Assembly: GCA_009602735.1 (NCBI GenBank) | Contig: WELA01001426.1 | Coordinates: forward strand, 154,338-210,704 | Length of the DNA stretch: 56,367 bases | Origin: Mesotaenium endlicherianum | Taxonomy: Eukaryota | Direction of reading: 5' to 3' | Shown here: positions 1,781 through 55,043 of the stretch, in pieces | How positions within the stretch are numbered: position 1 is the stretch's first letter | Layout of the letters: each line of letters opens with the position of its first letter | Made by a program: the position numbers and the translations under genes | Notes under the pieces: generated by a model | Database searches by the model: none | Told to the model about the DNA's origin: nothing | Seen by the model: only the letters and a program-made list of their open reading frames with translations

Positions 1781-1841
<61 letters not shown>

Positions 1842-3295: not shown

Positions 3296-3363
3296 GCGAT
3301 AGCAGCGATATAGCAGCGATATAGCGGCGATATAGCGGCAATATAGCAGCGATATAGCGGCGA
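3296..3363. repeat. Minisatellite, 11-bp unit GCGATATAGC(A/G), about 6 copies
   Basis: Direct reading: gcgatagca gcgatatagca gcgatatagcg gcgatatagcg gcaatatagca gcgatatagcg. Confidence 0.85.
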
Positions 3364-14910: not shown

Positions 14911-15632
14911 TGAAATGAATCGACTTACCAATTAGGCGATTAACAATTAATAAAGATCTTTAAATCAGCAAGTAATCTTTATGGTATTTTCCGTTAACTG
15001 GTTAAACGGCAAAGGACAATACACTAGCAGTGAATAGTACTCGTAAGTCAAACGCGAGTAAACTAGCATCAATAATGCAAATCAGTAAACTCGTACATAA
15101 GCAAGGTTAGAAGACAGTGCGTATCAATGGCTTCTCGCCTTGGATTCAGATCTCTCTCAGTAAGCTGTACAAGAGAGTTGGCCTCGTTTCCGAATGCCGA
15201 ACTCGAGAGCAATGCCTAGCATATGTACATGGAATGAGTTTACTGTTCAACGGCCAGTGCGATGGCACCGCCTACCCGGGAGTTAACCACGTTGGTAGGA
15301 CCTCGGTTAACCAAATCCACCGCCATCTCCCATCATCCCGAATCGCCATCCATCATAGGGATGTCATCTGGCCATTCATCTAGCATACCACACTTAGATG
15401 CATATCGAGGCAGTTCGCTGCTACCGAGTACGGAAGTCAGCTGGCTGTCAAAGAATGTGTCAACAAGCTGACTTAAGCTGACATCAGCCTGCTGCTTCCG
15501 GCTGAGTCATTAAACTGATATTTAAATATAACGTCCAGCAGACTGATCATTAACTAGAGTTCAGCAGGCTAAACTTATTTAACAATATTATTTAAATGAA
15601 TATTATGTCAACCAATATACTGATTCATTACA
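14911..15632 (-). repeat. 3' LTR of A1
   Basis: Near-identical to 23011-23726; adjacent PPT AAGTTGGAGGGAT on minus strand. Confidence 0.96.
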
Positions 15633-15717
15633 ATCCCTCCAACTTATGATGTTGTCGCCTCGACAACACTAACACTAATAACAGCGTGTTGTCCCTTCCG
15701 TCCCCAGCCTACTGCCA

Positions 15718-17385
15718 TTAGGAGGGAGATGTCCCTGAGGCCCTATACTCAGGGGAGCCAGACCTCCTCCTGTCTTGGGGTCTTCTGAAGCCTGTCAGAG
15801 AGGGAGGTTCCGTGTAAGGACCCGGCGGAGAACGCAGTAACTAGGCTGTTTCCTCCTGCACAGTCTGAAACTGAAGGGAGGCAGCCTTCTCCTGGGCAGC
15901 CCTCAAACTGACAGGTACGTATACCGGCATACCAGAAGGATGTTGCATGACATGAGCCAAGGGTACATGCCCTCTCTGCGAGGGAGATGCTGGCAGGCCC
16001 CTGGCTATCTCTCGAGCAGCCCTCCTGTCTGCCCTGTCTGACTGGGTCTTCGTGCCTGCAGATGGGCTCTGTCCTCTGGCAGTTCCCAGCCAAGTGATAT
16101 CCTCCTCTTCAACGAGTTGCTGCAGGGCCAACCCCGTCTTCTCCCTTACAGGGGATGTGGCAGGTGTCAGGATCACGGCGGGGCTAGTGTCCTCCTCCTT
16201 GCCTTCCTCCTCGTCTTCCTCTGACTCCTCCTCCTCGCCGTCCCCGGGTTCCTCTGAGACTTCTGGGGTCTCTTCTGTCAGCTGCTCCAGCTCTTCCCGA
16301 GAAAAAGAATATCCTACTGACCTTCCCCTTTTGGGTGCTGGTGGGGGCTGCTGAGTCCGGACCGCATAGAGGTCCTTTTCCCCCTGCTTACTTGCCCATT
16401 TGGCATAAGCGTGCTTCCCTTTGGAGAATGACTCTCGGGCCCTGCTTCTGTCCCCCTGCATCTCTTGGCTCATGCAGTCTCTGACTCCATCCAATCTTGG
16501 GTCCCAAGCCGCAATGTGAGGGGGCAATACTATGTTCCCCTTTAGGTCTGTCAGGAAATCCTCATCCGTCGCCCTGTCATTCTGCTGGTCCCTCATGTTG
16601 ATGGTCATCCACCGCCAATCAGTGGGCTTTTGGAAGAAGGCAGCGTCTGTCTTTTTAAGAGTACAAGGGTACCAGTGCCCTGCAAAGTCCAGCTGACTGG
16701 TTTCTCTGGCCAAGAATTCCCAGCTCCTCCTCTCCACCTCATTGTACATGGCCTTGAACCTGTTGTGGGGTGTTGAGTCCTTGAAGCTGTCCGCGTCCAT
16801 GGGGATCATCCTGATGACCCTATCTGCCCCCCAGATACCAGGAATCGAGACAGCTCCTGCTTCGTTCACCTGGGCCATTGCCTTGGCCTCTCCGATGGTA
16901 TATCCTACCATCCTGGCGTAATCGTGGTAGAGGAGGAGCCCTGTGCCGACCTCTATATACTTGTCAAAGTTTTCGGATGTCTCCCCTTCCTTCTGGAGGA
17001 TTTCCTTCTGCGACTCACTGCGACTTCTCTGGGCATACTTGAAGGCCTCCTCCAGTAGATCAAAGCCCTTGCCCAGCACCGTGTAGCGGTAGCTGCTGAT
17101 TCTCCTCTGTTCTTCTTCTTCAGCCTGCTGCTTCCGCTTCTCCTCAGCTTGCCTCTCCTCCTCTGCTTTCTTAACCTCCTCTGCAGCTTTTCTGTCCATT
17201 TCTTCTTGCCTCAGTCTGGCCTGTTCCTCCTCCTCCTTCTTCTTCTGTGCCTCGCGCTGTTGTTGGAGTCGTTGTGATTCCCGAGCGGAGATGGAAGATG
17301 ATTCGATGTCTCCACGGAAGTGCAAGTATTTTGCATGTGCCTCTTCCGCCCTTCTCTTCCTCTTGAGTTCCGACTTTTGAGTCAT
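15718..17385 (-). CDS. Family-A extra ORF3, type a (unknown function); ~555 codons with a probable premature TAG at 15841-15843
   Basis: ORF 15841-17394 in the track. ATG at 17385 follows a CAG|G acceptor. Similarity to type b continues past the TAG (LLRSPPGP..GFRRPQDR vs ILRSPRGP..FFRRPADR) to an in-frame TAA at 15718. Confidence 0.85.
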
Positions 17386-17708
17386 CCTGCTCAATCATAA
17401 ACACAATGCAGTTAGTGAAGTCATGATATTTTGCCGCTACTGAGTGCCCTTGATGAAGAGGAACGCGATCGAGAGAGTTCCTAGTGTGGAATACCTGGTG
17501 TGAGTGAATATAAGGGAAAATTGAGTTAGAGAGCAAGTGAGTGTGAGCGCAAGTTGAGTGTGTAATATGGTGATCAGAGAATACCACTCCCTCCAACTTA
17601 ATTTTAAAGGTGGGCTGCGTGTCACAACTGTTACTAACTGTCACATCCCCCTCCACTTATATGGAGACAGGACCTCCTGTCACCTTCCCATGTCTACTGA
17701 AGGGACAG

Positions 17709-20700
17709 TTAGGGCGATGCCCCAGCCGCCCGAAGGTGGAACCATTTCAACGCCCCTTTGGCATTGGTCAGCTGGTCTTCAAATTCCCAAGTGTCCCCAG
17801 AGGCATCGTAACCCTTCCATCGGATGAGGTACTTCATGACATATTTAGACAATCGACGGACCGAGCGTGCGTCTGAAATCTCATCGACCTCATATTCCTC
17901 AGGATCGCCGTGCCGGACAGCGGGGACCGGTCCCGGTTGGACAGGTAACCGCCCTGTGAACAATGAATCACCTTTGATGTATGGTTCCAGGAAGGAGACA
18001 TTAAAGACCGGGTGACCCTTGTAGTCAGCTGACATGTTCAGTTTGTAAGCATTCTGACCGACACGACGGACCACCGAATATGGACCGACCCAGACAGGGC
18101 CAAGCTTTTTCTTGACCACACCAGGGAGGTACAGGTGCTCAGAATGCAGTTTGACTAAATCCCCCTTGGAAAATGTCAGTTCCCGACGGTGTTGATTAGC
18201 GTATTTTTGTTGGTTTTCTTGGGCTGTGTGCAAGTTTTGTTGGACTTCTGACAGGGTGTCAGCAAACTCCTGAGTTAACTGGAGGGAGACCGGGTTGTCA
18301 ATCCCTTCAGGGTGAGTTAAAGACCCCCTCAGTACATCTAAAGGAGACTTAGGGACTCTACCCAGGCTGAGTTCAAAAGGAGTCGTGCCCGTTGACGTGT
18401 GCACCGCACTGCTGACCGCAAACTGAATTTGAGGCAACAGGTCATCCCAATTATCTTGTTTTTGGTTAATATATGCTCTCAGCACCTCCTGCAGAACTTG
18501 GTTAGTTTTTTCAGTCTGCCCATCAGTCTGAGGGTGGTTTGCTGTGCTGAGCAGCTGTTTGACTCCCATTAACCCCATTAAAGCTCTCCAGAACTTAGAG
18601 GTGAATTTTGAGTCTCTGTCTGAGATGATATTAGAAGGGAGCCCATGTTGGCATACTACATGGTTGTAAAACTGTCTCGCTGTTTCGAGTGCAGTCACTT
18701 TGACAGTTGTGGGGATAAAAATGACCATTTTTGTCAGTTTATCCACGACTACCAGTATTGAATCATGCCCGTTGGCAGTTCTTGGTAGTGAGACCACCCA
18801 GTCCATGGATATAGTTTCCCAGCGTCCCGCTGGGATGGGTAGCGGTTGCAAGAGACCTCCGGGTGGTGTGTGCCGAGACTTATTTCTCTGACACTGGTCA
18901 CAGGACTTGACATATTTCAAGACCTCCCGGGGTAACCCCTCCCAATGATAATGTTTTGCCAGTTTGCCAACAGTTTTGGCCTGCCCCAAATGTCCACCCA
19001 GGAGACTGTCATGAGCTTGACTCAGTAAGAGAGACCTTATTTCCAAATTATTAGGAATGACCAGCTTCAGCCTGCCTGAAGTGGTTTCAGTCACCCAGAC
19101 CCCTCCCTTGAGCTTATACCCGAGTGCAGTAGCACGACACACACCAGTAGTGGGGCTGGGCTCAAATGTTGGGTCAGAAAGGTAGGCTTTCCTAAGTTGT
19201 TCAAGGAAGGACTTTTTCACCTTTAGTGAAGTGAGTGCACACAGGACTTTATCTACAGCATGCTGACTAAAGTTCCTTTCTTGCAAGTCAGGTCTTCTAG
19301 AGAGTGCATCAGCAGGATTCAACTTCCCTGGTTTGTAGTCGATCTGGACTTGGAACTGCTCCAGCATCTGGCTCCAGCGGTTCTCCCTCCTCGACAGCTT
19401 GGACTTCTTCTGAAAGTGGGTCAGAGCTAGATGATCTGTAATCACCTTAAAAGCTTTACCATGTAAGTATGCTCTCCACTGTTTGAGTACATGAATGATA
19501 GCTAGCAGCTCTTTATCATGCACTGAGTAATTAATCTCCGCTGGATTAAATTTCATAGACTCGTACAACACAGGGTGCCACTCCTGCCGTACCTTACCAT
19601 CCTTTGTGGTCTTGTCAGCAGGCTGCAACAAAATAGCACCCATGGCAAAGTCAGAGGCATCAGTGACCACCTGCACGGGTTTGATGGAAACATACACGGC
19701 TAGCACTGGGGCAGAACAAAGGGCCTCTTTAAGGGTTTAGAAGGCAGCCTGCTGCTCTTCCCCCACACATACCCTATGTCTTTCTTAGTAAGGTCAGTCA
19801 GTTTACTGGCCTTTGTGGAATAATTCTCAATAAATCTCCTATAGTAGTTAGCCAACCCGAGGAAGGATCTAACTTCAGAGACAGACTGTGGTACTGGCCA
19901 GTCCCTTATGGTCTGGACTTTCTTAGGATCCACACTGATGCCCTCTTTACTGACAACGTGGCCTAAGAATTCAATACTTTCCTTAAAGAAATCACACTTG
20001 CTCATTTTAGCATACAAGTGATTTTTCCGCAGAGTGTCCAGCACTTTCTTTAAGTGTTCAGTGTGCTGAGCTTCATCTTTAGAGAAAATTAAAATATCAT
20101 CCAGGAAAACTTGCACAAACTTATCCAAATAAGGTCTGAAAATGTCATTCATAGCACCCATGAAGGTAGCAGGAGCATTAGTCAGTCCAAATGGCATCAC
20201 GTTGAACTCATAGTGTCCATAACGTGTGCGGAAAGCAGTCTTGTGTTCATCCCCCTCAGCAATTCTGATTTGATGATAACCACTCTTGAGATCTATCTTA
20301 CTGAACACCTTAGCGCCAGACAGGGTATCAAGCAAGTCCTCGATCCTGGGTAAAGCATACTTGTTCTTTACTGTAATTCTGTTCAGGGCTCTGTAATCCA
20401 CACACATCCGCATACTGCCATCCTTTTTCTTAACAAATAGGATGGGTGCACCATAAAGTGATTTACTGGGAGAAATATAACCATTTTCCTCAAGCTCTGC
20501 AATCTGTGTTTTCAACTCCTCGCTCTCCACATAAGACAAGCCATANNNNNNNNNNNNNNNNNNNNNNNNNNNNNNNCCAAGTACTAAATCAATCCTATGA
20601 TCTACTTCCCGCTTAGGGGGTAGTCCTGGAGGCATATTAAATACATCCGTGTACTGAGCAACAATGTTTGCAGCAGTAGGGTGTTCCGGAGGGTGTACCT

Positions 20701-21523
20701 TTTTCTCAACCACTTCTTCAGGTTGAGGAGGTACCTCTCTTAGCAGCAGACAGAACATTCTGTCTTCCTTCTAATTCCAGCTTTTGACGAACTCCATTGC
20801 ATTCAGCAACTTGCATCCTTCTGGAAGCCTCTTCTTTTCCTTCATTTGCCATCCACACAGGACAAGAGGAAGAGCACTGGTGGGTGCCAAGTCAGTCTGC
20901 CCATCACTGGCTCCTCTCACTTTAACTGTACCTCTGCTCCAACACACTTCAGCTTGATGTCTATTAAGCCAGGACCTGCCTAGCACGAGATCATAAAAGC
21001 CAGTGTTGAGTACCTCAAATGTAAGCGTTTCAGTTAGAACTGCAATGCCAGAATCTAACTGGACCTCAATAGGCTTGGTTATAACTCCTCCCGGGATACT
21101 TGAGGCATCTCTAAGGAATATTTTTCTAATCCCTTGGGTGACAGTAGGCAGCCTTAGCCGCTTAACTAAGTCCTTGTGGATAAAAGTATGTGACGCCCCT
21201 CCGTCAACAAATGCCCTCACCTTCCTACCTGCAATCATGCAATGCAGTAGGATAGGGGGGACTGTCTTTTCCTGACTTTTCCATTGTTCTCCTGACTTAG
21301 CAAAGAAATGTTGGACATTAGGTGGAACAAGAGCATCCAGAGTGTGCACTCTCTGGACGTCTATATTGTTGATGGTCTCCTTTATCTGGTTGTCAGGCAT
21401 GCATAGTGAATCCAGTTCAGCAGGACCCATATTACCTGCTACGAGGGCAGCTAGTGACGACTCACTATCTCTAGCATCCTCACAGTCAATAGACTGGATT
21501 ACCGACTGTTGTTGTCTTTTATA
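17709..21523 (-). pseudogene. pol: pol of A1 (protease, RT, RNase H, integrase, chromodomain), disrupted
   Basis: Motifs [35 protein letters not shown] integrase, [14 protein letters not shown]. In-frame TAG at 20771 and frameshift near 19760 relative to A2; small N gap 20546-20576. Confidence 0.93.
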
Positions 21524-22976
21524 GGCTGGTCTTTTCTCTCGACCTTCGGAAGGTGCTTGACTGGACACTGTTCTCTGTAGTGGCCCAACTGCTGACAATG
21601 GTAGCAAGTGGATTTTGCTGAGGCTGGTCTCGGCTTAGTCCTACCACCACCTCTACCATAGCGCCTCGAGAGGGACCACCTCTACCTCTAGACTGTATAG
21701 CATTGTACTCCTACTCATATTCATCACCCTGATCATCCTCAGCCTGGTCTCCTTCAATTGCATTGTAGGAACCGTGGGGCTTTTTGACAATCTTAGACAC
21801 CGAAGCATTACTCTGGCGCTTGTGATTGAACTGCTGCTGATCCCAGGCATCCGCATCCTGGATCAAGTCAGCGATTTTCTCATACTTTTTCTCAGCAAAA
21901 TGACCAGAGACTTCGGATTTCAAGCCATGCTTGAAGTATGCTATCCTATACCGTTCTGGCAAGTCTGGCTGTTTCATCATGTTCTCCTGGACCTTTTGAG
22001 CAAACTCAGCAACTGAAGTGGTCTGCTTCAGTGTCAGAGAGATCATCGCATAGATAGCTTTCTCCTGCTGGTTGATGACATCAAACTTCTCATGCAACTT
22101 CTCGACAAACTCTCCCCACGTAGAGTCACCGAGTTGTCGAGCCTTACGCTCTCCTTTCCAGTAAAGCCACCAGTCTTCGGCACTGCCTTTCAGTAGCGCA
22201 CCGGTGTGACTGACCTTCTCGTAATCTTGCAGTTCTGGGTAGTTCTCCAGCCACTGCTCAACATCCGCGAGAAACTTGATCAGGTAATATTTTCTGTTTC
22301 CCTCAGGATCATAGTCCTGGGGAGGTTTCGGCTTGGGCTTACTAGGCCCTCGGCCACCACCACTAGTGGTTTGAGACCCCAGTTGGTCTCTGTCCCGCAG
22401 TAGAGACATTATGATTCTTTTGTCCTCCTGCTGGGACTGATACATGGTCGCCATTTGCGACTGCATCTGAACGAACAATGCTCCCAAGTCTACATTTTGG
22501 GGTGGTAGCTTAGCAAATGCAGCAGCAGCATTGGCATCTACTCGCTGAGTAGTGTCCTCAACAATCCCTCTTGCTCCTGCAGCAGCAATTCCTGCCGCAT
22601 TCAGCCGGTCACGTATTTGACCTAGGGGTACATTGAGTTGTACGGCAGGAGGTGGGTTCAGAACATTGGCCCTTGATGCCATAAGTTCTTCAACAGTGCG
22701 CTCGTCAGCTGGCTGTCCTTCCCTCCTTTGTATATCTTCAGCGGCCTTTGCTACTTGTTCAGCTTCTAGTCTGGCTATCTCCTCCTCAGCTTGCTGAGCT
22801 GCGACTGAGGCAATAGCAGCTGCCTCATCTGCTGCCTCTCTAACTGCAGTATCTGCCACTGCTTTAGAATAGGTACGGGTTCCCGCTACATGGCTTTCCG
22901 CCTGGTTTTCGACATTCTCGTTATCCTGGTTCTCCATGTCTCGGGAGTTGCTAGTTTGAGACCTTGTCCTTACCAT
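21499..22976 (-). pseudogene. gag: gag of A1, premature stop at 21711 and 1-bp deletion near 21662
   Basis: Near-identical to intact gag 40107-41585; TAT>TAG at 21711. Confidence 0.92.
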
Positions 22977-22997
22977 ACAAAGAAGACTGTGCTAACT

Positions 22998-23009
22998 GCT
23001 CCGATACCA
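22998..23009 (-). promoter_or_regulatory. Primer-binding site (initiator Met tRNA type) of A1
   Basis: TGGTATCGGAGC one base after the 5' LTR. Confidence 0.9.
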
Positions 23010-23010
23010 C

Positions 23011-23726
23011 TGAAATGAATCGACTTACCAATTAGGCAATTAACAATTAATAAAGATCTTTATATCAGCAAGTAATGGTATTTTCCGTTAACTGGTTAAA
23101 CGGCAAAGGACAACACACTAGCAGTGAATAGTACTCGTAAGTCAAATGCGAGTAAATTAGCATCAATAATGCAAATCAGTAAACTCATACATAAGCAAGG
23201 TTAGAAGACAGTGCGTATCAATGGCTTCTCGCCTTGGATTCAGATCTCTCTCAGTAAGCTGTACAAGAGAGTTGGCCTCGTTTCCGAATGCCGAACTCGA
23301 GAGCAATGCCTAGCATATGTACATGGAATGAGTTTACTATTCAACGGCCAGTGCGATGGCACCGCCTACCCGGGAGTTAACCACGCTGGTAGGACCTCGG
23401 TTAACCAAATCCACCGCCATCTCCCATCATCCCGAATCGTTAATTATCATAGGGATGTCATCTGGCCATTCATCTAGCATACCACACTTGGATGCATATC
23501 GAGGCAGTTCGCTGCTACCGAGTACGGAAGTCAGCTGGCTGTCAAAGAATGTGTCAGCAAGCTGACTTAAGCTGACATTAGCCTGCTGCTTTCGGCTGAG
23601 TCATTAAACTGATGTTTAAATATAACGTCCAGCAGACTGATCATTAACTAGAGTTCAGCAGGCTGAACTTATTTAACTATATTATTTAAATGAATATTAT
23701 GTCAACCAATATACTGATTCATTACA
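23011..23726 (-). repeat. 5' LTR of A1
   Basis: TGTAATGAATC...GATTCATTTCA termini; followed by PBS and gag. Confidence 0.96.
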
Positions 23727-38460: not shown

Positions 38461-38588
38461 CTTGCCTAGTCTACCTTACATGTGTAGCACCTGACTTGGC
38501 GCCTTTGACTAGTCCTCTTCACATGTGTGGCATCTGACTTGAAACTGTTGACTAGTTTGCTCCACATGTGTAAGACCTGACTTGACGC
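38461..38588 (+). repeat. ~43-bp tandem repeat (about 3 copies) just upstream of the PPT of element B
   Basis: ACATGTGT....CTGACTTG units start at 38478, 38521 and 38564. Confidence 0.8.
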
Positions 38589-40106
38589 GCCGAGACGTCG
38601 CTTTTTCTATCGGGGGGGTGATGTAGTGATTTGAGTTATTATATATTAGTTTGCATATATTTTAATGTTTTCAAATATATTTGGAGTAGTATTGTGTGGA
38701 GTCAAGTGTGAATAGGTACTCTAGTAACTTGGTTCATGTCCTTTGAACCTTCCAAGGCATTTTCGAAGTTAGAGGAAAGACCTAGAAGAACTCCATGTGG
38801 CAAAAGTCAAATGTGCCATTTTTAGGTCAAAAGGACATGTGTACATTATTCTAGAAAGAGGTGGCAAGTTTTGGGATGTGTTGGGTGCCAACACATCAAC
38901 ATACACCTTCCTAGAAATTACTTATGTAGCAAGTATATAAACAAGAGCTAGAACATAGAAAGACATTCGAGAATCACTCTTGTACTTGCCAAAATCCAGA
39001 AATATATTAACTTTCAAGAAGCCATCTCTCTTTCAAGAAGCTACCACTTGTGTTCAAAGATCCTTGTCTTGAATAGATAAAGTATTCTGTTTTACTAAGT
39101 ACTTTCTCTATCTGTTTCACTACACACTTTCACAAGAAGTCCAAGTTGTTGAGAAGGAAGAACCGCTGGAGCCAGATGCTGGAGCAATTCCAAGTCCAGA
39201 TTGACTCCAAACCAGAGAAGTTGAGCCCTGTTGATGCACTCTCGAGAAGACCTGACTTGCAAGAAGGGAACTTTAGTCAGCACGCTGTAAATAAATTCTT
39301 GTGTGCACTTACTTCATTAAAAGTGTAATGAATCAGTATATTAGTAGATATAATATTCATTTAAATATAATAGTTAATTTAGTTAAGCCTGCTGAACTTT
39401 AGTTAGTAGTCAGTCTGCTGAACTTTAGTTAATAATCAGTCTGCTGGACTTTACATAATTATCAGTTTAATGACTCGGCCAAAAGCAGCAGGCTGAAGTC
39501 AACTTAAGTCAGCTTGCTGACACATTCTTTGACAGCCAGCTGACTTCCGTGCTCGGTAGCAGCGAACTGCCTTGATAAGCATCTAAGTACCACCTCTAGA
39601 TGAATGGCCAGATGACATCCCCATGATGGATGGCTATTCGGGATGATGGGAGATGGCGGTGGATTTGGTTAACCGAGGTCCTACCAACGTGGTTAACTCC
39701 CGGGTAGGCGGTGCCATCGCACTGACCGTTGAACAGTAAACTCATTCCATGTACATATGCTAGGCATTGCTCTCGAGTTCGGCATTCGGAAACGAGGCCA
39801 ACTCTCTTGTACAGCTTACTGAGAGAGATCTGAATCCAAGGCGAGAAGCCATTGATACGCACTGTCTTCTAACCTTGCTTATGTATGAGTTTACTGATTT
39901 GCATTATTGATGCTAGTTTACTCGCATTTGACTTACGAGTATTATTCACTGCTAGTGTATTGTCCTTTGCCGTTTAACTAGTTAACGGAAATACCATAAA
40001 GATTACTTGCTGATATAAAGATCTTTNATTTAATTGTTAATCGCCTATTNTTAGGTAAGTCGATTCATTTCAGTGGTATCGGAGCAGTTATCACAGTCTT
40101 CTTTGT

Positions 40107-41585
40107 ATGGTAAGGACAAGGTCTCAAACTAGCAACTCCCGAGACATGGAGAACCAGGATAACGAGAATGTCGAAAACCAGGCGGAAAGCCATGTAGCGG
40201 GAAACCGTACCTATTCGGAAGCAGTAGCGGATACTGCAGCTAGGGAGGCGGCAGATGAGGCAGCTGCTATTGCCTCAGTCACAGCCCAGCAAGCTGAGGA
40301 GGAGATAGCCAGACTAGAAGCTGAACAAGTAGCAAAGGCCGCTATAGATATACAAAGGAGGGAAGGACAGCCAGCTGACGAGCGCACTGTTGAAGAACTT
40401 ATGGCATCAAGGGCCAATGTTCTGAACCCACCTCCTGCTGTACAACTCAATGTACCCCTAGGTCAAATACGTGACCGGCTGAATGCGGCAGGAATTGCTG
40501 CTGCAGGAGCAAGAGGGATTGTTGAGGACACTACTCAGCGAGTAGATGCCAATGCTGCTGCTGCATTTGCTAATCTACCACCCCAAAATGTAGACTTGGG
40601 AGCATTGTTCGTTCAGATGCAGTCGCAAATGGCGACCATGTATCAGTCCCAGCAGGAGGACAAAAGAATCATAATGTCCCTACTCCGGGACAGAGACCAA
40701 CTGGGGTCTCACACCACTAGTGGTGGTGGCCGAGGGCCTAGTAAGCCCAAGCCGAAACCTCCCCAGGACTATGATCCTGAGGGAAACAGAAAATATTACC
40801 TGATCAAGTTTCTCGCGGATGTTGAGCAGTGGCTGGAGAACTACCCAGAACTGCAAGATTACGAGAAGGTCAGGCACACCGGTGCGCTACTGAAAGGCAG
40901 TGCCGCAGACTGGTGGCTTTACTGGAAGGAAGAGCGTAAGGCTCGGCAACTCGGTGACCCTACGTGGGTAGAGTTTGTCGAGAAGTTGCATGAGAAGTTT
41001 GATGTCATCAACCAGCAGGAGAAAGCTATCTATGCGATGATCTCCCTGACACTGAAGCAGACCACTTCAGTTGCTGAGTTTGCTCAAAAGTTCCAAGAGA
41101 ACATGATGAAGCAGCCTGATTTGCCAGAACGGTATAGGATAGCATACTTCAGGTATGGCTTGAAATCCGAGGTCTCTGGTCATTTTGCTGAGAAAAAGTA
41201 TGAGAAACTGGCTGACTTGATCCAGGATGCTGACGCCTGGGATCAGCAGCAGTTCAATCACAAGCGCCAGAGTAACGCTTTGGTGTCTAAGATTGTCAAA
41301 AAGCCCCACGGTTCCTACAATGCAGTTGAAGGAGACCAGGCTGAGGATAATCAGGGTGATGAATATGAGTATGAGTACAATGCTATTCAGTCTAGAGGTA
41401 GAGGTGGTCCCTCTCGAGGTGGCTATGGAAGGGGTGGTGGTAGGACTAAGCCGAGACCAGCCTCAGCAAAATCTACTTGCTACCATTGTCAGCAGAAAGG
41501 CCACTACAGAGAACAGTGTCCGGTCAAGCACCTGCCTAAGGTCGAGAGAAAAGACCAGCCTTTAAAAGACAGCAACAGTCAGTAA
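40107..41585 (+). CDS. gag: Gag of A2 (492 aa, CCHC knuckle)
   Basis: [23 protein letters not shown]-rich segment, [14 protein letters not shown]. Confidence 0.95.
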
Positions 41586-44500
41586 TCCAGTCTACTGACT
41601 GTGAGGATGCTAGAGATAGTGAGTCGTCACTAGCTGCCCTCGTAGCAGGTATTATGGGTCCTGCTGAACTGGATTCACTATGCATGCCTGACAACCAGAT
41701 AAAGGAGACCATCAGCAATATAGACGTCCAGAGAGTGCACACTCTGGATGCTCTTGTTCCACCTGATGTCCAACATTTCTTTGCTACGTCAGGAGAACAA
41801 TGCGAAAGTCAGGAAAAGACAGTCCCCCCTATCCTACTGCATTGCATGATTGCAGGTAGGAAGGTGAGGGCATTTGTTGACGGAGGGGCGTCACATACTT
41901 TTATCCACAAGGACTTAGTTAAGCGGCTAAGGCTGCCTACTGTCACCCAAGGGAATAGAAAAATATTCCTTGGAGATGCCTCAAGTATCCCGGGAGGAGT
42001 TATAACCAAGCCTATTGAGGTCCAGTTAGGTTCTGGCATTGCAGTTCTAACTGAAACGCTTACATTTGAGGTACTCAACACTGGCTTTTATGATCTCGTG
42101 CTAGGCAGGTCCTGGCTTAATAGACATCAAGCTGAAGTGTGTTGGAGCAGAGGTACAGTTAAAGTGAGAGGAGCCAGTGATGGGCAGACTGACTTGGCAC
42201 CCACCAGTGCTCTTCCTCTTGTCCTGTGTGGATGGCAAATGAAGGAAAAGAAGAGGCTTCCAGAAGGATGCAAGTTGCTGAATGCAATGGAGTTCGTCAA
42301 AAGCTGGAACCAGAAGGAAGACAGAATGTTCTGTCTGCTGCTAAGAGAGGTACCTCCTCAACCTGAAGAAGTGGTTGAGAAAAAGGTACACCCTCCGGAA
42401 CACCCTACTGCTGCAAACATTGTTGCTCAGTACACGGATGTGTTTAATATGCCTCCAGGACTACCCCCTAAGCGGGAAGTAGATCATAGGATTGATTTAT
42501 TACCTGGTAGCCAGCCACCCTGGCAACGCACGTATGGCTTGTCTTATTTGGAGAGTGAGGAGTTGAAAACACAGATTGCAGAGCTGGAGGAAAATGGTTA
42601 CATTTCTCCCAGTAAATCACCGTACGGCGCACCTATCCTATTTGTTAAGAAAAAGGATGGCAGTATGCGGATGTGTGTGGATTACAGAGCCCTGAACAGA
42701 ATTACAGTAAAGAACAAGTATGCTTTACCCAGAATCGAGGACTTGCTTGATACCCTGTCTGGCGCTAAGGTGTTCAGTAAGATAGATCTCAAGAGTGGTT
42801 ATCATCAAATCAGAATTGCTGAGGGGGATGAACACAAGACTGCTTTCCGCACACGTTATGGACACTATGAGTTCAACGTGATGCCATTTGGACTGACTAA
42901 TGCTCCTGCTACCTTTATGGGTGCTATGAATGACATTTTCAGACCTTATTTGGATAAGTTTGTGCAAGTTTTCCTGGATGATATTTTAATTTTCTCTAAA
43001 GATGAAGCTCAGCACACTGAACACTTAAAGAAAGTGCTGGACACTCTGCGGAAAAATCACTTGTATGCTAAAATGAGCAAGTGTGATTTCTTTAAGGAAA
43101 GTATTGAATTCTTAGGCCACGTTGTCAGTAAAGAGGGCATCAGTGTGGATCCTAAGAAAGTCCAGACCATAAGGGACTGGCCAGTACCACAGTCTGTCTC
43201 TGAAGTTAGATCCTTCCTCGGGTTGGCTAACTACTATAGGAGATTTATTGAGAATTATTCCACAAAGGCCAGTAAACTGACTGACCTTACTAAGAAAGAC
43301 ATCGGGTATGTGTGGGGGGAAGAGCAGCAGGCTGCCTTCCAGACCCTTAAAGATGCCCTTTGTTCTGCCCCAGTGCTAGCCGTGTATGACCCCAGCAAAC
43401 CGGTGCAGGTGGTTACTGATGCCTCTGATTTTGCCATGGGTGCTATTTTGTTGCAGCCTGCTGACAAAACCACAAAGGATGGTAAGGTACGGCAGGAGTG
43501 GCATCCTGTGTTGTATGAGTCTATGAAATTTAATCCAGCGGAGATTAATTACTCAGTGCATGATAAAGAGCTGCTAGCTATCATTCATGTACTCAAACAG
43601 TGGAGAGCATACTTACATGGTAAAGCTTTTAAGGTGATTACAGATCATCTAGCTCTGACCCACTTTCAGAAGAAGTCCAAGCTGTCGAGGAGGGAGAACC
43701 GCTGGAGCCAGATGCTGGAGCAGTTCCAAGTCCAGATCGACTACAAACCAGGGAAGTTGAATCCTGCTGATGCACTCTCTAGAAGACCTGACTTGCAAGA
43801 AAGGAACTTTAGTCAGCATGCTGTAGATAAAGTCCTGTGTGCACTCACTTCACTAAAGGTGAAAAAGTCCTTCCTTGAACAACTTAGGAAAGCCTACCTT
43901 TCTGACCCAACATTTGAGCCCAGCCCCACTACTGGTATGTGTCGTGCTACCGCACTCGGGTATAAGCTCAAGGGAGGGGTCTGGGTGACTGAAACCACTT
44001 CAGGCAGGCTGAAGCTGGTCATTCCTAATAATTTGGAAATAAGGTCTCTCTTACTGAGTCAAGCTCATGACAGTCTCCTGGGTGGACATTTGGGGCAGGC
44101 CAAAACTGTTGGCAAACTGGCAAAACATTATCATTGGGAGGGGTTACCCCGGGAGGTCTTGAAATATGTCAAGTCCTGTGACCAGTGTCAGAGAAATAAG
44201 TCTCGGCACACACCACCCGGAGGTCTCTTGCAACCGCTACCCATCCCAGCGGGACGCTGGGAAACTATATCCATGGACTGGGTGGTCTCACTACCAAGAA
44301 CTGCCAACGGGCATGATTCAATACTGGTAGTCGTGGATAAACTGACAAAAATGGTCATTTTTATCCCCACAACTGTCAAAGTGACTGCACTCGAAACAGC
44401 GAGACAGTTTTACAACCATGTAGTATGCCAACATGGGCTCCCTTCTAATATCATCTCAGACAGAGACTCAAAATTCACCTCTAAGTTCTGGAGAGCTTTA

Positions 44501-45370
44501 ATGGGGTTAATGGGAGTCAAACAGCTGCTCAGCACAGCAAACCACCCTCAGACTGATGGGCAGACTGAAAGAACTAACCGAGTTCTGCAGGAGGTGCTGA
44601 GAGCATATATTAACCAAAAACAAGATAATTGGGATGACCTGTTGCCTCAAATTCAGTTTGCGGTCAACAGTGCGGTGCACGCGTCAACGGGCAAAACTCC
44701 TTTTGAACTCAGCCTGGGTAGAGTCCCTAAGTCTCCTCTAGATGTGCTAGGGGAATCTTTAACTCACCCTGAAGGGATTGACAACCCGGTCTCCCTCCAG
44801 TTAACTCAGGAGTTTGCTGACACCCTGTCAGAAGTCCAACGAAACTTGCACACGGCCCAAGAAAACCAACAAAAATACGCTAATCAACACCGTCGGGAAC
44901 TGACATTTTCCAAGGGGGATTTAGTCAAACTGCATTCTCAGCACCTGTACCTCCCTGGTGTGGTCAAGAAAAAGCTTGGCCCTGTCTGGGTCGGTCCATA
45001 TTCGGTGGTCCGTCGTGTCGGTCAGAATGCTTACAAACTGAACATGTCAGCTGAATACAAGGGGCACCCGGTCTTTAATGTCTCCTTCCTGGAACCGTAC
45101 ATCAAAGGTGATACACTGTTCACAGGTCGGTTCCCTGTCCAACCGGGACCGGTCCCCGCTGTCCGGGACGGCGACCCTGAGGAATATGAGGTCGATGAGA
45201 TTTTAGACGCTCGCTCGGTCCGTCGATCGTCTAAATATGTCATGAAATACCTCATTCGATGGAAGGGTTACGATGCCTCTGGGGACACTTGGGAGTTTAA
45301 GGACCACTTGACCAATGCCAAAGGGGCGTTGACACGGTTCCACCTTCGGGCCGCTGGAGTCCCTCCATAA
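41561..45370 (+). CDS. pol: Pol of A2 (PR-RT-RH-INT-chromodomain), in -1 frame to gag
   Basis: [74 protein letters not shown]; frame open from ~41540, start given at the slippery site. Confidence 0.96.
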
Positions 45371-45637
45371 CTGTCATTTCAGTTGACACGGGAAGGTGAC
45401 AGGCGGTCCTGTCTCCATTTAAGTTGGAGGGGAAAATATATGACAGTTAGTGAGCGAGAGCGATAAAAACACACTCATACGTTTATGTGTAGCGCATCGC
45501 AACTACGTCAACTTTTAGCAATCATCCTGTAAGGTAAACAGCAGCGAAGCCACTATACTAAATACTAACATACTTCCTGCAATCCCTATGACAAAGGTCC
45601 ATATCCTACTAACTTGTGCCCTGGTTACATGTGCAGG

Positions 45638-47314
45638 ATGGCGCCCACCACACAAAAGGAGGACAGAAAGCGCAAGGCAGAAGAAGCCAGGAGGACAATG
45701 GAGCAATACCAGAAGGAGCTGGCGGCGACGTCCCTCACCAGGAGAGAACAAGAAAGGGTCCGCAAACAACAAGAGGCGGCAGAAGAGGCACAGAGGAAGA
45801 AGGATCAGGAAGCGGAAAACCTCAGGAAGGCTGAGGAGGAGAGACAGAAGAAACAGCAAGAAGAAGCGGCAGCGGCAGAAGAGGAGAAAAGAAAAAAGAT
45901 TGAAGCGGACAGACAGAAGAGCTTGGCCACTTACAGGTATACTGTGGTGGGTGGCCAAAACTTCGATAACCTGAAGGAAGCATTGCTGGCAGCCCAGGAG
46001 ATCAACAGGCTGGAACAGACAACACTGCTACAGAAGGAAGGAGCTACAGCACTGGACAGGTACATCGAGACACACACCGGCGTGGTCCTTTACGAAGATT
46101 ATGCTAAGATGGTGGGCTATACAGCAGAGCAGGCCCGGTATCTCGCAGATGATTCAGAGGACAAGCCGGTCCCCATACCGGGAATAGTGGGAGATCAGAG
46201 ACTCATCCGGATGGTGAGCATGCGGCCCGATAGCTTTAAGGATACGGTATTCTACCTCACACTCCTGCCAGCTTACAATGAAGTTGAGAGAAGGAGCTGG
46301 GAGTACTTGGCCAGGGAAGCAGGACAGCAGATGTTCTCTCCCCACTGGTTCCCGTGTAAACTGAGGAAGGCTGAGCACGGACCCCAGTACTACCAGCAGC
46401 CAACAGACTGGAGGTGGATGACCGTCACAAATAAGAAGCAGGAGTGTGACCGAGCCCAACCGGATGACTTCCACTATGGCCTAGACGGCTATCTCATCCT
46501 ACCACCTCACATTGCCCCTTGGGACCCCAGGCTGAATGGATGCCTGAGCAATATGAATGCAGAGACCAAGGAACATAGGAGGAGGGGAAGAGAGTACTTC
46601 TCTAAGGGAAAGCATGCCTTTGTCAAATGGGCAAAGAATGCAGGCCGGATAGATATCAGTAGGCTGAAGGCCAAGCAACCTCCAGCGCGCCCTAAGAAAG
46701 GGAGGTCGGTAGACTACTCCATGTCTACTAGGGAGCAGGACGACTTAGTGGACGAGACCCCTACTCTCTCCGAGGAGGAGGATGAGGAGGATGAGGAAGG
46801 AGAACAAGGCAGAGGAGAAGCATCAGCAGCAGGTACTCAGGATACCCAGCGAGAGGCAGTGGCACTTCCTAAAGAACCACGATCAGGTGTGTGGAATGTG
46901 ATCCCCGTTATGGCGACAACTGGACCCCGCGCTCGCTCCCCCAGCCCACCTGCCCAAGCAGGGGAAGAAGCTGATCTGACTGTACTGGGCAGCAGACACA
47001 GGCAGAAATCCCCAGAGGACAGGGGTGCCAGAAGAGGGACACGCGGGTGGGCCAGAGGTATGCCAGCCTCCCCCTCCGCTCAGGGGCATGTACCTCTAGC
47101 CAATGTATTTCAGCATCCTACTGGAATGCCTGTCTATGTGGGAATCAACACCCAAATAGTTGAAGAGCAGGCCACCATCCTCCGTTCTCCTCGAGGGCCA
47201 ACTTTAGAGCAAACAGGGTTCTTTAGAAGGCCAGCTGACAGACCTAGAGGGCTGTCCAGATCTAGGTCCAGATCTCCGTCCCCTGATCCTGAAGCCCCAG
47301 GAACCACCCCTTAA
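45638..47314 (+). CDS. Family-A extra ORF3, type b (558 aa, unknown function)
   Basis: Long open frame between pol and the 3' LTR; charged N-terminal coiled-coil-like region, aromatic-rich core shared with type a, acidic tract, Ser/Arg/Pro-rich tail; ATG directly after CAG|G. Confidence 0.9.
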   Translation: MAPTTQKEDRKRKAEEARRTMEQYQKELAATSLTRREQERVRKQQEAAEEAQRKKDQEAENLRKAEEERQKKQQEEAAAAEEEKRKKIEADRQKSLATYRYTVVGGQNFDNLKEALLAAQEINRLEQTTLLQKEGATALDRYIETHTGVVLYEDYAKMVGYTAEQARYLADDSEDKPVPIPGIVGDQRLIRMVSMRPDSFKDTVFYLTLLPAYNEVERRSWEYLAREAGQQMFSPHWFPCKLRKAEHGPQYYQQPTDWRWMTVTNKKQECDRAQPDDFHYGLDGYLILPPHIAPWDPRLNGCLSNMNAETKEHRRRGREYFSKGKHAFVKWAKNAGRIDISRLKAKQPPARPKKGRSVDYSMSTREQDDLVDETPTLSEEEDEEDEEGEQGRGEASAAGTQDTQREAVALPKEPRSGVWNVIPVMATTGPRARSPSPPAQAGEEADLTVLGSRHRQKSPEDRGARRGTRGWARGMPASPSAQGHVPLANVFQHPTGMPVYVGINTQIVEEQATILRSPRGPTLEQTGFFRRPADRPRGLSRSRSRSPSPDPEAPGTTP

Positions 47315-48461
47315 GGTGACAGGCTGAAAAGATAGTCAGTAAGGGAGGCTGGTCAGGGTCAGTTTCTTTATTTAAAGCTTTTGCAGTTTAATGTTGTCGA
47401 GGCGACAACAAGTTAAGTTGGAGGGATTGTAATGAATCAGTATATTAGTAGATATAATATTCATTTAAATATAATAGTTAATTTAGTTCAGCCTGCTGAA
47501 CTTTAGTTAGTAGTCAGTCTGCTGAACTTTAGTTAATAATCAGTCTGCTGGACTTTACATAATTATCAGTTTAATGACTCGGCCAAAAGCAGCAGGCTGA
47601 AGTCAACTTAAGTCAGCTTGCTGACACATTCTTTGACAGCCAGCTGACTTCCGTACTCGGTAGCAGCGAACTGCCTTGATATGCATCTAAGTGCGATATG
47701 CTAGATGAATGGCCAGATGACATCCCTATGATGGATGGCTATTCGGGATGATGGGAGATGGCGGTGGATTTGGTTAACCGAGGTCCTACCAACGTGGTTA
47801 ACTCCCGGGTAGGCGGTGCCATCGCACTGACCGTTGAACAGTAAACTCATTCCATGTACATATGCTAGGCATTGCTCTCGAGTTCGGCATTCGGAAACGA
47901 GGCCAACTCTCTTGTACAGCTTACTGAGAGAGATCTGAATCCAAGGCGAGAAGCCATTGATACGCACTGTCTTCTAACCTTGCTTATGTATGAGTTTACT
48001 GATTTGCATTATTGATGCTAGTTTACTCGCATTTGACTTACGAGTATTATTCCCTGCTAGTGTATTGTCCTTTGCCGTTTAACTAGTTAACGGAAATACC
48101 ATAAAGATTACTTGCTGATATAAAGATCTTATTTAATTGTTAATCGCCTATTGGGTAAGTCGATTCATTTCAAAAAGTCAAAAAGTCCTTTCTTGAACAA
48201 CTTAGGAAAGCCTACCTTTCTGGCCCAACATTTGTGCCCAGCCCACCTGATGATGTGTGTCCTGCTACTGCACTCGGTTATACGTTGAAGGGAGGGAACT
48301 GGGTAAGTGAAAATACTTCAGGAAGGCTCAAGTTGGTGATTCCTAATCACTTGGTCTTCATTATTGAGTCAAGCTTATGACAGTTTACTGGTGGGACATT
48401 TGGGGCAAGCCAAAGCTATTGGCAAACTGGCAAAACATTATTATTGGAAAGGGTTGCCTCG

Positions 48462-49207
48462 TGTAATGAATTAGTATATTGGATAGATATTATTTTCATT
48501 TAGATGTAATAGTCAAATAAGTTAAACTTGCTGAACTTCAGTAAATATTCAGTTTGCTGAATTTAAGTCTGCTGGATACTTAATACTTACTTCAAATGAC
48601 TCAGCCAAGAGTAGCAGGCTGAAGTCCATTAGGTCAGCCTATGGACTTGGGTCAGCTTGCTGACACATCCTTTGACAGTCAGCTGGCTGCCGTACTCGGC
48701 AGCAGCGAACTGCCTAGCTATGCATCTAAGTGTGGTGTGCTAGATGAGTGGCCAGATGACACCTTTAAGGTGGATGGCGATTCGGGATGATGGGAGATGG
48801 CGGTGGATCCGGTTAGCCGAGGTCCCACCAACGTGGTTAACTCCCAAGTAGGCGATGCCATCGCACTTGCCGCTGAACAGTAAATTCATTCCATGTACAT
48901 ATGCTAGGTATTGGTCTCGAGTTTGGCATTCGAAAACGAGGCCAACTCTCTTGTACTGCTTACTAAGAGACTGAATCTAAGGCGAGAAGCATTGATACGC
49001 ACTGTCTTCTAGCCTTGCTAATGTATGAGTTTACTGATTGCATTATTGATGCTCGTTTACTTGCATTTGACTTGCGAGTATTGTCCACCGCTAATATGTT
49101 TGTCTTTTGCTGTTTCATTAGTTAATAGAAAATACCATAAATATTAATCGTTGATATAAAGATTTTTATAGATTGTTAATCGCCTATTGGTAAGTCGATT
49201 CATTTCA
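48462..49207 (+). mobile_element. Solo LTR, family A (older variant), inserted in the integrase zinc finger of X
   Basis: TGTAATGAAT...ATTCATTTCA; TSD CCTCG at 48457-48461 and 49208-49212. Confidence 0.94.
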
Positions 49208-51021: not shown

Positions 51022-52413
51022 ATGACCCAAAAGTCTAAACTTAAGAGGAAAAGAAGAGCGGACGTGGCCCAGGCGGAATACAAGGAATTCCACGGCGACA
51101 TCAAGTCGTCCTCCATCTCATTTTGTGAATCAGAGCGACTTTGACAGCAGCGGGAGGCTCAGAAGAAAAAGGATGAGCAAGAACAAGCCAGGTTGTGACA
51201 GGAAGAGCAGGACAAAAAAGCTACAGAGGAAGCCAAGAAGGCAGAAGAAGACAGGCAAGCTGAGGAGAGGCGGAAGCAGCAAGCTGAGGAGGAATAGAGG
51301 AGAATCAAAAGCTACCGCTACATGGTGATGGACAAGGGCTTTGATCTTTTGGAGGAAGTCTTCAAGTACGCCCAGAGGAGCAGAAGTGAATCATAGAGGG
51401 ACATACTGCAGCGAGAAACGTAGTCAGCCGAAGGTTTTGATACGTACATAAAAGTCAGCATAGGGCTTATGTTGTACCATGATTATGCTAGGATGGTGGG
51501 GTATACGGTCCGGGAGGCCAAAGCATAGGCCCAGATAGGTGAATCTGAAGCTGTGCCAATACCTGGGATCTGGGGCACAAACAAGGTCATCAGGTTGATC
51601 CCTATGCATACAGACAGCTTCAAGGATGCCACTTCCCACAACCGGTTCAAGGCCATGTATAACGAGGTGGAGAGAAGAAGCTGGGTTTTTGGCAAGGGAG
51701 ACCAGCCAGCTGGATTTCTGAGGACATTGGTATCCCTGTACCCTGAAGAGGACACACCTTGCTTTCTTTTTGTAGTCCGCTAACTAGCGTTGGATGACCA
51801 TCAACATGAGGGACCAGCTCAATGACAGAGCTGAGGAAGACGATTTCCTGGCAGACATGCAGGGAAAATAGTGCTGCCACCTCACATTGCAGCATGGGAC
51901 CCAAGACTGGATGGAGTCAGGGACTGCATGAGTTAGGAGACACACGAGGATGGGACTAGGGCCAGAGAATCTTTCTCTAAGGGGAAGCATGCTTATGCCA
52001 AATGGGCAAGTAAGCAAGGGGAGAAGGACTTGTATGCGGCCAGGACCCAACAACCCCCACCAGCACCCAAAAGGGGGAGGTCAGTGAAATACTCTTTTTC
52101 TCGGGAACGGCTGGAGGAGATGACTAGAGAGACTCCAGAAGTCTCAGAAGAACAGGAAGACAACGAGGAGGAAGGCCCAGGGGAGGAGTCTAGCCCTGCG
52201 GATGCAGAGACCCCTGCTACATCCCCCACGCTGCAGAAGATTAGGATGTCCTTGGCTCAGGCAGCCCTGCAGCAGCTTGGGGATACCAGTCCACCCAGAG
52301 ATGCAGATCTCCACTGGCTGGGAAGTTTTAACAGGAGGAGTATGACCCCAGGAGGTGAGATTCAATCAGACAGAGCAGACAGGAGGGCTGCCAAGGAGGC
52401 AACAAGAGGGCAG
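51022..52413 (+). pseudogene. ORF3 type a-like of element X, degenerate, interrupted at 52413 by A3
   Basis: MTQKSKLKRKRRA, IPGIWG..DSFKD..YNEVERRSW, QQPPPAPKRGRSV, QSDRADRRAA fragments with stops and frameshifts. Confidence 0.88.
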
Positions 52414-53239: not shown

Positions 53240-54917
53240 TTAAGGGGTTGTTACTGGGGCTTCAAGATCAGGAGACGGAGATCTGGACGTGGATCTGGAC
53301 AGCCCTCTAGGTCTGTCAGCTGGCCTTCTAAAGAACCCTGTTTGCTCTAAAGTTGGACCTCGAGGAGAACGAAGGATGGTAGCCTGCTCTTCACCCACTT
53401 GGGTGTTGATCCCCACATAGACAGGCATTCCAGTAGGATGCTAAAATACATTGGCTAGAGGTACATGCCCCTGAGCGGAGGGGGAGGCCGGCATACCTCT
53501 GGCAAACCCGCGTGTCCCTCTTCTGGCACTCCTGTTCTCTGGGGATTTCTGCCTGTGTCTGCTGCCCAGTATAGTCAGATCAGCTTCTTCCCCTGCTTGG
53601 GCAGGTGGGCTGGGGGAGCGAGCGCGGGGTCCAGTTGCCTCCATAACAGGGATTACATTCCAAATACCTGATCGTGGTTCCTTAGGAAGTGCCCCCTGCC
53701 TGCCCCTGAGTATCCTGAGTACCAGCTGCTGATGCTTCTCCTCTGCCTTGTTCTTCTTCCTCATCCTCCTCATCCTCCTCCTCGAAGAGAGTTGGGGTCT
53801 CGTCCACTAAGTCGTCCTGCTCCCTAGTAGACATGGAGTAGTCTACCGATCTCCCTTTCTTAGGGCGCGCTGGAGGTTGCTTGGCCTTCAGCCTGCTGAT
53901 ATCTATCCGGCCTGCATTCTTTGCCGATTTGACAAAGGCATGCTTTCCCTGAGAGAAGTAGTCTCTTCCCCTCCTCCTATGCTCCTTGGTCTCTGCATTC
54001 ATATTGCTCAGGCATCCATTCAGCCTGGGATCCGAAGGGGCAATGTGAGGTGGTAGGATGAGATAGCCGTCTAGGCCATAGTGGAAGTCATCCGGTTGGG
54101 CTCGGTCACACTCCTGCTTCTTATTTGTGACGGTCATCCACCTCCAGTCTGTTGGCTGCTGGTAGTACTGGGGTCCGTGCTCAGCCTTCCTCAATTTACA
54201 CGGGAACCAGTGGGGAGAGAACATCTGCTGTCCTGCTTCCCTGGCCAAGTACTCCCAGCTCCTTCTCTCCACTTCATTGTAAGCTGGCAGTAGTGTGAGG
54301 TAGAAGACCGTATCCTTAAAGCTATCGGGCCGCATGCTCACCATCCGGATAAGTCTCTGATCTCCCACTATTCCTGGTATGGGGACCGGCTTGTCTTCTG
54401 AATCATCTGCAAGGTACCGGGCCTGCTCTGCTGTATAGCCCACCATCTTGGCATAATCTTCGTAGAGGACCACACCAGTGTGTGTCTCGATGTACCTATC
54501 CAGTGATGCAGCTCCTTCCCTCTGTAGCAGTGCTGTCTGTTCCAGCTTGTTGATCTCCTGGGCTGCCAGCAATGCTTCCTTCAGGTTATCAAAGTTTTGG
54601 CCACCCACCACAGTATACCTGTAAGTGGCCAAGCTCTTCTGTTTGTCCCCTTCAATCTTTTTCCTTTTCTCCTCCTCTGCCGCTGCCCCTTCTTCTTGTT
54701 GTTTCTTCCGTCTCGCCTCCTCAGCTTTCCTGAGGTTTTCCGCTTCCTGATCCTTCTTCCTCTGTGCCTCTTCTGCCGCCTCTTGTTGTCTGCGGACCCT
54801 TTCTTGTTCTCTCCTGGTGAGGGACGTCGCCGCCAGCTCCCTTTGGTATTGCTCCATTGTCCTCCTGGCTTCTTCTGCCTTGCGCTTTCTGTCCTCCTTT
54901 TGTGTGGTGGGAGCCAT
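53240..54917 (-). pseudogene. ORF3 type b of A3, frameshift near 53700 and TAG at 53441
   Basis: Three ORF pieces (53682-54941, 53441-53773, 53240-53428) are collinear with 45638-47314. Confidence 0.92.
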
Positions 54918-55015: not shown

Positions 55016-55043
55016 TTTAGGGTTTTAGGGTTTTAGGGTTTTA
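55016..55043 (+). repeat. Short interstitial telomere-type array TTTAGGG-(TTTTAGGG)2-TTTTA
   Basis: Direct reading; absent at the homologous site of A2 (~45530). Confidence 0.85.

Follow-up and report, generated by a model that had tools for sequence, protein, structure and literature searches.

Extra open reading frames (ORFs) beside gag and pol are known by the thousand from plant LTR retrotransposons. In the available parts of the REXdb survey, such eORFs of at least 250 codons are reported in 3372 Ty3/gypsy elements, and of the eORF proteins in REXdb just 21.4% had CDD hits; an eORF in sense orientation on the 3' side occurs in 18% of 782 Tekay elements (Additional file 5) and is not listed for Chlamyvir (44 elements) or Tcn1 (1500) (PMC6317226). 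Since sense ORFs following pol are thus already known, Tekay included, the architecture described here is not new, and the premise of the first-pass annotation of this DNA, that chromoviruses normally encode only gag-pol, was too strong.

Several described systems invite comparison with the gene reported here, ORF3. The aORF-3S or eORF-3'F genes of plant LTR retrotransposons, as far as the accessible text describes them, resemble it in position, orientation, presence in all copies and lack of a known domain (PMC6317226, PMC7264820). Group 2 Tekay elements of sunflower likewise encode a chromovirus accessory protein conserved across copies, for which a nuclear localization signal is predicted and a silencing-modulating role proposed; this aORF, however, is described as lying 5' of gag and as 92.5% predicted disordered (PMC11728184), whereas ORF3 lies 3' of pol and has an aromatic-rich conserved core of about 250 residues, a comparison made by description only. 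Maize Grande GENE23, which is reported to be nuclear and to have its own promoter (PMC7264820), and the TRP28 ORFs of Retand are accessory genes in the interval between pol and the 3' LTR, but they are antisense and belong to non-chromoviruses (PMC7264820, PMC11963269); ORF3 has no Transposase_28 or plant-mobile-domain match. A functional analogy is provided by the VANC proteins of Arabidopsis VANDAL elements, transposon factors that diverge between related elements and counter silencing through short non-coding motifs in tandem (compare the TGACA cluster below); they stem from DNA transposons and have no sequence link to ORF3 (PMC5735166). Modular capture of extra genes, as here, is described for bdelloid rotifer LTR elements, whose ORF3s are typically expressed from spliced messages (PMC5408684), and for algal chromoviruses with DAM or DNMT genes (bioRxiv 10.64898/2026.05.21.726589); the captured genes include recognizable enzymes or fusion proteins, whereas ORF3 of the copy described below as B matches no family.

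The stretch analysed (the window, 56,367 nucleotides) has host genes within 1-10,200, namely a riboflavin kinase and a PAS/GAF protein, and is a nest of LTR elements from about 12,500 onward. The PAS/GAF gene (5700-10100, reverse strand) has its relatives among histidine kinases from Mesen1 and Closterium, and its ORF ends after the last PAS at 5716; the best of 12 matches to its exon is a Mesen1 protein (83% identity), followed by a paralogue (61%) and Closterium proteins (52-53%). Mesen1 presumably stands for Mesotaenium endlicherianum. These matches make a zygnematophyte alga the likely host, probably of another species than Mesen1. A host intron at 1960-2200 contains repeated CCACCTGTCGCC-like words, the reverse complement of which resembles the element motif GGTGACAGG, and a further element fragment, in which a site at 25758 (reverse strand) resembles a PBS, occupies 24000-27900. 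The reference element, copy B, is complete (39324-48172):

39324..40072, forward strand: 5' LTR (TG...CA; 5-bp target-site duplication AAAAG; 98.5% identity to the 3' LTR)
40074..40085, forward strand: primer-binding site (PBS), TGGTATCGGAGC
40107..41585, forward strand: gag (Ty3 capsid, CCHC knuckle)
41540..45370, forward strand: pol (protease, RT, RNase H, integrase, SH3, chromodomain)
47428..48172, forward strand: 3' LTR

Copy B is a chromovirus of the Ty3/gypsy type, with TG...CA LTRs, a 5-bp target-site duplication, PBS and polypurine tract (PPT), gag, the order protease-RT-RNase H-integrase and a C-terminal chromodomain (pol residues 1216-1268; Pfam Chromo, E 2e-8), the cage positions of which we take to be occupied by the aromatic residues Y, W and Y. 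Its pol overlaps gag in the -1 frame and is probably reached by frameshifting at TTTAAAA (41561). The PBS, TGGTATCGGAGC, is presumably of the tRNA-Met type; in this, copy B differs from Tcn1 elements, described as mostly self-priming (PMC6317226). A quick RT-RNase H tree was computed with 47 rows (the query, the second chromovirus family of the window, matches covering at least 370 residues and at most 12 angiosperm rows), leaving out the REXdb reference elements (Chlamyvir, Tcn1, Tekay etc.); on this sampling copy B falls outside the angiosperm clade, among metagenome proteins without resolved position, with best identities of 57-61%. Together with the likely zygnematophyte host and the exchange of two old ORF3 types on one backbone (below), this placement distinguishes ORF3 from the plant aORF-3S genes.

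Copy A (14911..23726, reverse strand) is full length, with the target-site duplication ATTTG, a B-like gag-pol and a type-2 ORF3, and is thereby recombinant. Copy C appears to be an older element, about 83% identical and starting near 27936, within which copies B and D, a solo LTR and an element of the second chromovirus family apparently lie, the nest spanning 27936-55961; target-site duplications were checked for copy B and for the solo LTR (48462-49207, CCTCG). The second family (32445-39124) has an intact pol (34160-37852) and, downstream of it, no ORF of more than 97 codons, so that a post-pol gene is not required by every chromovirus here. In the four copies of the first family, ORF3 is found as follows:

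45638..47314, forward strand: ORF3 type 1 of copy B; intact, 558 aa, between pol and 3' LTR
15718..17385, reverse strand: copy A, ORF3 type 2; codon 515 of the 555 is a stop
51022..52413, forward strand: copy C, ORF3 type 2; decayed (10-25 stops in each frame) and truncated by copy D
53240..54917, reverse strand: copy D, ORF3 type 1; reading frame broken near codon 408, plus one stop

The first-pass annotation had described an ORF of about 555 codons in four copies; the sequence is indeed there in all four, but as an intact frame in copy B only. Both types share one layout: a basic cluster, a charged helix of about 90 residues, the aromatic-rich core, PK(K/R)GR, an acidic tract, a second conserved block and an S/P/R-rich tail. 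In type 1 the charged helix, with RKRK, covers residues 1-95 and the core about 96-345; PKKGR, the acidic tract (about 361-400), the second block (about 470-500) and an RS/SP-rich tail follow. In each type basic clusters occupy residues 8-13 and 352-356, and every core and second-block motif quoted beforehand was recovered in both. Being in sense orientation, at least 250 codons long, placed between pol and the 3' LTR and kept across copies, the gene belongs with the aORF-3S / eORF-3'F class. ORFs on the opposite strand over its start were dropped as low-complexity mirrors of the charged helix.

ORF3 is under purifying selection. By Nei-Gojobori counts, copies B and D differ over 556 codons with a dN/dS of 0.24 (41 synonymous and 34 non-synonymous changes; pN/pS 0.26, bootstrap 0.16-0.39), and of 0.14 in the core, for which a value near 1 had been named in advance as speaking against function; copies A and C give 0.12, over the first 217 aligned codons only. 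Between B and A synonymous sites are saturated, the core retaining 51% amino-acid identity at a pS of 0.72 and the second block 61%. With gag and pol of B versus A as controls (0.28 over 421 codons and 0.27 over 675 codons), the constraint on ORF3 is no weaker than that on the core genes. The earlier proposal that block-wise conservation reflects a selected folded domain therefore holds for selection; for a fold, the AlphaFold models of the two types give no support, with pLDDT values of just 42.5 and 36.0. In composition, CpG is depleted to an observed/expected ratio of 0.40-0.47 in gag, pol and ORF3 (ORF3, 0.40) against 1.13 in one host exon, and GC3 of ORF3 is 0.57-0.63, element-like, against 0.95 in one host exon; in both respects ORF3 resembles gag-pol and not the host exon tested, and is thus not a fresh capture.

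The two types are far more diverged than the elements that carry them. Between copies A and B, identity is 94-97% in gag-pol (dS 0.075 in gag, 0.064 in pol) and 93-95% in the LTRs, whereas in ORF3 DNA it is 58% (pS 0.75), compared with 78% between A and C; at the protein level the two types are 48% identical and the gag-pol proteins carrying them 95-96%. In 300-nt windows, B/A identity runs at 0.87-1.0 in gag-pol and falls to 0.45-0.61 over 45324-47423. Within ORF3, 302/306 informative sites join A with C and B with D, whereas at the 3' end of pol the informative sites divide 7/6/2, copy C being distinct at 78 sites. The switch between types extends from about 45452 (the B/A alignment ending near 45451) to 47387, delimiting a cassette of about 1.9 kb with a PPT at each side:

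45420..45431, forward strand: internal copy of the PPT, TAAGTTGGAGGG, exact; left edge of the exchanged cassette in copy B
47390..47425, forward strand: hairpin (z -3.3) and true 3' PPT; right cassette edge near 47388

Copies A and C each have two PPT-like sites at the left side of the cassette. That B and C share the internal PPT is, taken alone, weak evidence (chance about 0.11); the site may be a plus-strand primer or a scar of capture. The joining of a type-2 spacer to a B-like end of pol recurs as a loose end in X15, RNA reads from another study (7 reads at 45432), and in contigs of X1, which may itself be the source of the window. These patterns, which require at least one double crossover, show that ORF3 is an exchangeable cassette of two deeply diverged types, swapped at least once between near-identical gag-pol backbones. 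Template switching between co-packaged RNAs is an established route of exchange, and is the probable one here.

Upstream of ORF3, the spacers following pol contain a predicted intron in the 5' UTR (slashes mark splice points):

45534..45636, forward strand: predicted 5'-UTR intron of type 1, copy B; 103 nt, AG/GTA donor, CTAAC branch point near 45608-45613, CAG/G-ATG acceptor
17387..17494, reverse strand: predicted 5'-UTR intron of type 2, copy A; 108 nt, the same three signals

In each case the intron (about 105 nt) would end one base before the ORF3 ATG, with CTAAC about 25 nt before the acceptor; the corresponding prediction in copy C is 109 nt long, its acceptor decayed. Because type-1 and type-2 spacers otherwise align no better than shuffles (p 0.16), the like splice signals point to a separate spliced ORF3 mRNA. 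The combination of YAG-G directly before an ATG with CTRAC 15-40 nt upstream occurs at 3/1542 ATGs in the transposon part of the window, and these three begin ORF3 in B, D and A (expectation if independent, about 7e-4 per ATG); the pattern having been derived from the ORF3 copies themselves, these chance estimates are post hoc. Host introns have CTGAC upstream of three of five acceptors, picked by eye. A second possible donor, G/GTAAGT, is carried by the U5 end of the LTR. Copy D has AAAACCCT repeats in place of the donor, although D, like C with its decayed acceptor, is a broken copy; about three such repeats are seen at approximately 55040-55070 (reverse strand), where the donor is predicted. 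We take the AAAACCCT repeats to be of the TTTTAGGG type, an algal telomere unit, and they are possibly a telomeric insertion at a repaired break. Neither this shared 5' intron nor the exchange of two types had been noticed in the first-pass annotation.

Six raw RNA runs from three studies were scanned, 6-24% of each. Coverage of ORF3 is thin and patchy, mostly 0-7x per direction and zero over type 1 in X9, and the scanned portions contain no joint at the predicted ORF3 intron or from the LTR donor. Reads over the 5' part of ORF3 in the likely sense direction occur on type 2 in X10 and X16 (3-6x) and on type 1 in X15 (1-2x); in all three runs they are confounded by a rearranged, transcribed copy. 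That copy is indicated by an opposite-strand joint, 17323/18949, present in 4/4 runs (X10, X13, X15, X16), which suggests an inverted pol-spacer segment and would yield RNA antisense to pol; a bidirectional promoter, considered on account of antisense RNA over the 3' end of pol, was rejected on these grounds. The opposite strand also shows GT..AG joints at 19415-19622 and 19462-19622. Reads at 16205-16240, with loose ends on both sides, were set aside as off-target. Many first mates from three runs start at 15183-15196, in the 3' LTR of copy A, where LTR transcripts may be polyadenylated. On the splice signals, translation of ORF3 from its own spliced mRNA appears probable.

Searches for relatives support the earlier statement that ORF3 belongs to no recognized family. 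ORF3 gave nothing at cut-off in Pfam and NCBIfam, the best match of its core to PDB sequences had an E of 0.12, and exact look-up found 0/3 window proteins. With the core, phmmer yielded 0/4116 candidates (306-977 aa searched). A core profile built from three sequences, the second conserved block being left out and thus absent from the large-library searches, was run by hmmsearch against 1.84 billion cluster representatives; the sole match, a bacterial protein with short tandem C-terminal repeats that aligned in 6 stretches, was rejected as summed repeats. Neither search type gave a host-gene homologue, and for VANC or any other described accessory domain of transposable elements there was no Pfam family at cut-off and no true match among these representatives. 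In metagenome and viral contigs 0/212 and 0/57 candidates for the ORF3 core were confirmed, as were 0/2 viral candidates for copy B pol. Among 79 metagenome gypsy loci (from the best 80 of 584, in 6/64 collection parts), none had an ORF3 by tblastn or hmmsearch; at least 1.5 kb follows pol in 24 of them, 8/24 with ORFs of at least 200 aa, by eye mostly gag or pol of a following copy. One such locus (L018) has a 300-aa sense ORF 267 nt after its pol match, unrelated to ORF3 by tblastn. ESM Atlas gave no homologue, the best score being 0.84 for type 1 and nothing for type 2, which is a lead only. Foldseek of the ORF3 models against PDB and BFVD gave no E of 0.001 or below, and VIA a best Z of 4.4; the models are too poor for these outcomes to be informative. 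Profiles of captured enzymes (DNMT, DAM, AlkB/TET, DEDDy, GDSL) were likewise without Pfam or PDB sequence match to the core at E up to 10. The IPGIxG...FPC spacing in ORF3 is, we assume, DNMT-like; a DNMT reading was dropped, as no ENV-like motif follows and no profile matches. The literature searched contained no description of ORF3, subscription works such as Steinbauerova 2011 and part of the REXdb supplement lying outside its scope. By all these searches the ORF3 protein family is new, having no detectable relative in the libraries covered.

That ORF3 encodes some kind of functional accessory protein with expression of its own is very probable. Our preferred reading, to which we assign a probability of roughly 0.4, is that it is a selected, exchangeable accessory gene with its own spliced mRNA, the product of which is nuclear and counters host silencing or activates transcription of the element. 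ORF3 transcripts would arise at a promoter within the pol-ORF3 spacer or else at the LTR, via the U5 donor; removal of the predicted intron would place the ORF3 ATG right after the exon junction, and the protein would enter the nucleus through its conserved basic clusters, a nuclear location being likely from the motifs and in keeping with the suggestion made in the first-pass annotation. By analogy, the core may bind nucleic acid or chromatin, the acidic tract may recruit or mimic chromatin factors, and the two alleles may persist since host defence keeps changing. The activity itself is suggested by Grande GENE23 and VANC and by the CpG depletion of the element, which speaks for silencing pressure; the same depletion also counts against it, as the element is CpG-depleted although it carries ORF3, and neither sequence nor structure searches found a homologue or fold tying ORF3 to any anti-silencing or DNA-binding protein.

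It is possible, if rather doubtful, that ORF3 is instead a nuclear RNA regulator of the Rev/Rex kind, binding element RNA and controlling its splicing, export or packaging. The basic clusters and the tail of type 1 (7 RS/SR dipeptides in residues 506-558) would suit this role, as would the predicted splicing, and an analogy to retroviral accessory proteins is drawn in the available text of PMC7264820; the RS run is weak in type 2, however, with 2 dipeptides, no RNA-binding family is matched, and the hairpins that precede the internal PPT-like sites are no more stable than those of shuffled sequence (z -0.9 to +0.3). A cofactor of the particle or of integration, packaged with Gag/Pol and aiding import of the pre-integration complex or chromodomain targeting, is unlikely: the long charged helix, basic clusters and acidic tract are compatible with it, as is the nesting of element copies inside one another, but types only 48% identical that are freely swapped on one gag-pol speak against close co-evolution of ORF3 with a contact on Gag or integrase and would fit a partner outside the element better.

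Another proposal concerns timing, and holds that ORF3 is a stage-specific host manipulator, induced in the zygote by KNOX/BELL-type factors through TGACA motifs in the spacer and favouring transposition or inheritance at the sexual stage. TGACA is in excess in the four ORF3 spacers (4, 3, 8 and 3 copies versus 0.35-0.96 in shuffles), the eight being in copy C (about 50611-51021), together with its two PPT-like sites; the Chlamydomonas zygotic element, of which TGACA forms the core, is given as YGACAYGAC, and KNOX-BELL sites share TGAC (PMC4889651, in the part available). Low RNA coverage may fit. Against this, the spacers share part of their TGACA motifs by descent, and the full ZYRE is not enriched (4 in the window against about 1.7 expected by rough estimate; in 1/4 spacers, on the reverse strand), so that the TGACA cluster is a lead only; moreover, Spirogyra is reported to be without HD_TALE_BEL and KNOX2 (PMC13519894, as far as accessible), and not every zygnematophyte therefore has both partners. 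Such a role is quite unlikely, though it concerns when ORF3 acts and does not exclude the counter-silencing explanation.

An Env-like or movement protein for cell-to-cell spread is very improbable. Position and sense orientation between pol and the 3' LTR, and predicted splicing as described for env-like ORFs (PMC7264820, in part), would allow it, but the N-terminus is hydrophilic and neither signal peptide nor transmembrane anchor is present, the best 19-residue Kyte-Doolittle means being 0.73 and 0.88 in the two types, which bears out the earlier remark that this is no classical Env; the poor model gave no viral Foldseek match, and Flexi/Poty coat clusters in ESM Atlas (0.81) are at noise level and absent with type 2. 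That ORF3 is a neutral passenger, or a recently captured host gene without role for the element, is scarcely credible, for although 3/4 copies are broken and expression is low, its dN/dS largely refutes this, its composition is element-like and no host-gene homologue was found.

The counter-silencing reading in its most far-reaching form would make ORF3 a counter-defence protein of new fold, the first from any LTR retrotransposon, with two ancient alleles in a PPT-bounded cassette swapped by template switching and expressed from its own spliced mRNA, possibly zygote-timed via TGACA, in an alga sister to land plants; it is improbable that all of this holds together. New here are the ORF3 protein family and the unusual two-allele, exchangeable cassette, extra ORFs at this position being common. 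The gene arrangement itself is known, and what is added is a protein family without detectable relative among 1.84 billion cluster representatives, in a host that likely belongs to the class of algae standing nearest to land plants. The element offers a natural experiment on two open questions, whether counter-silencing factors are encoded by LTR retrotransposons themselves and which role the thousands of extra ORFs in plants have (PMC6317226, PMC7264820 and PMC11728184, in the parts available): its two alleles differ strongly while their backbones are nearly identical, one copy is young and intact, the borders of the cassette are clear, and splice sites are predicted.
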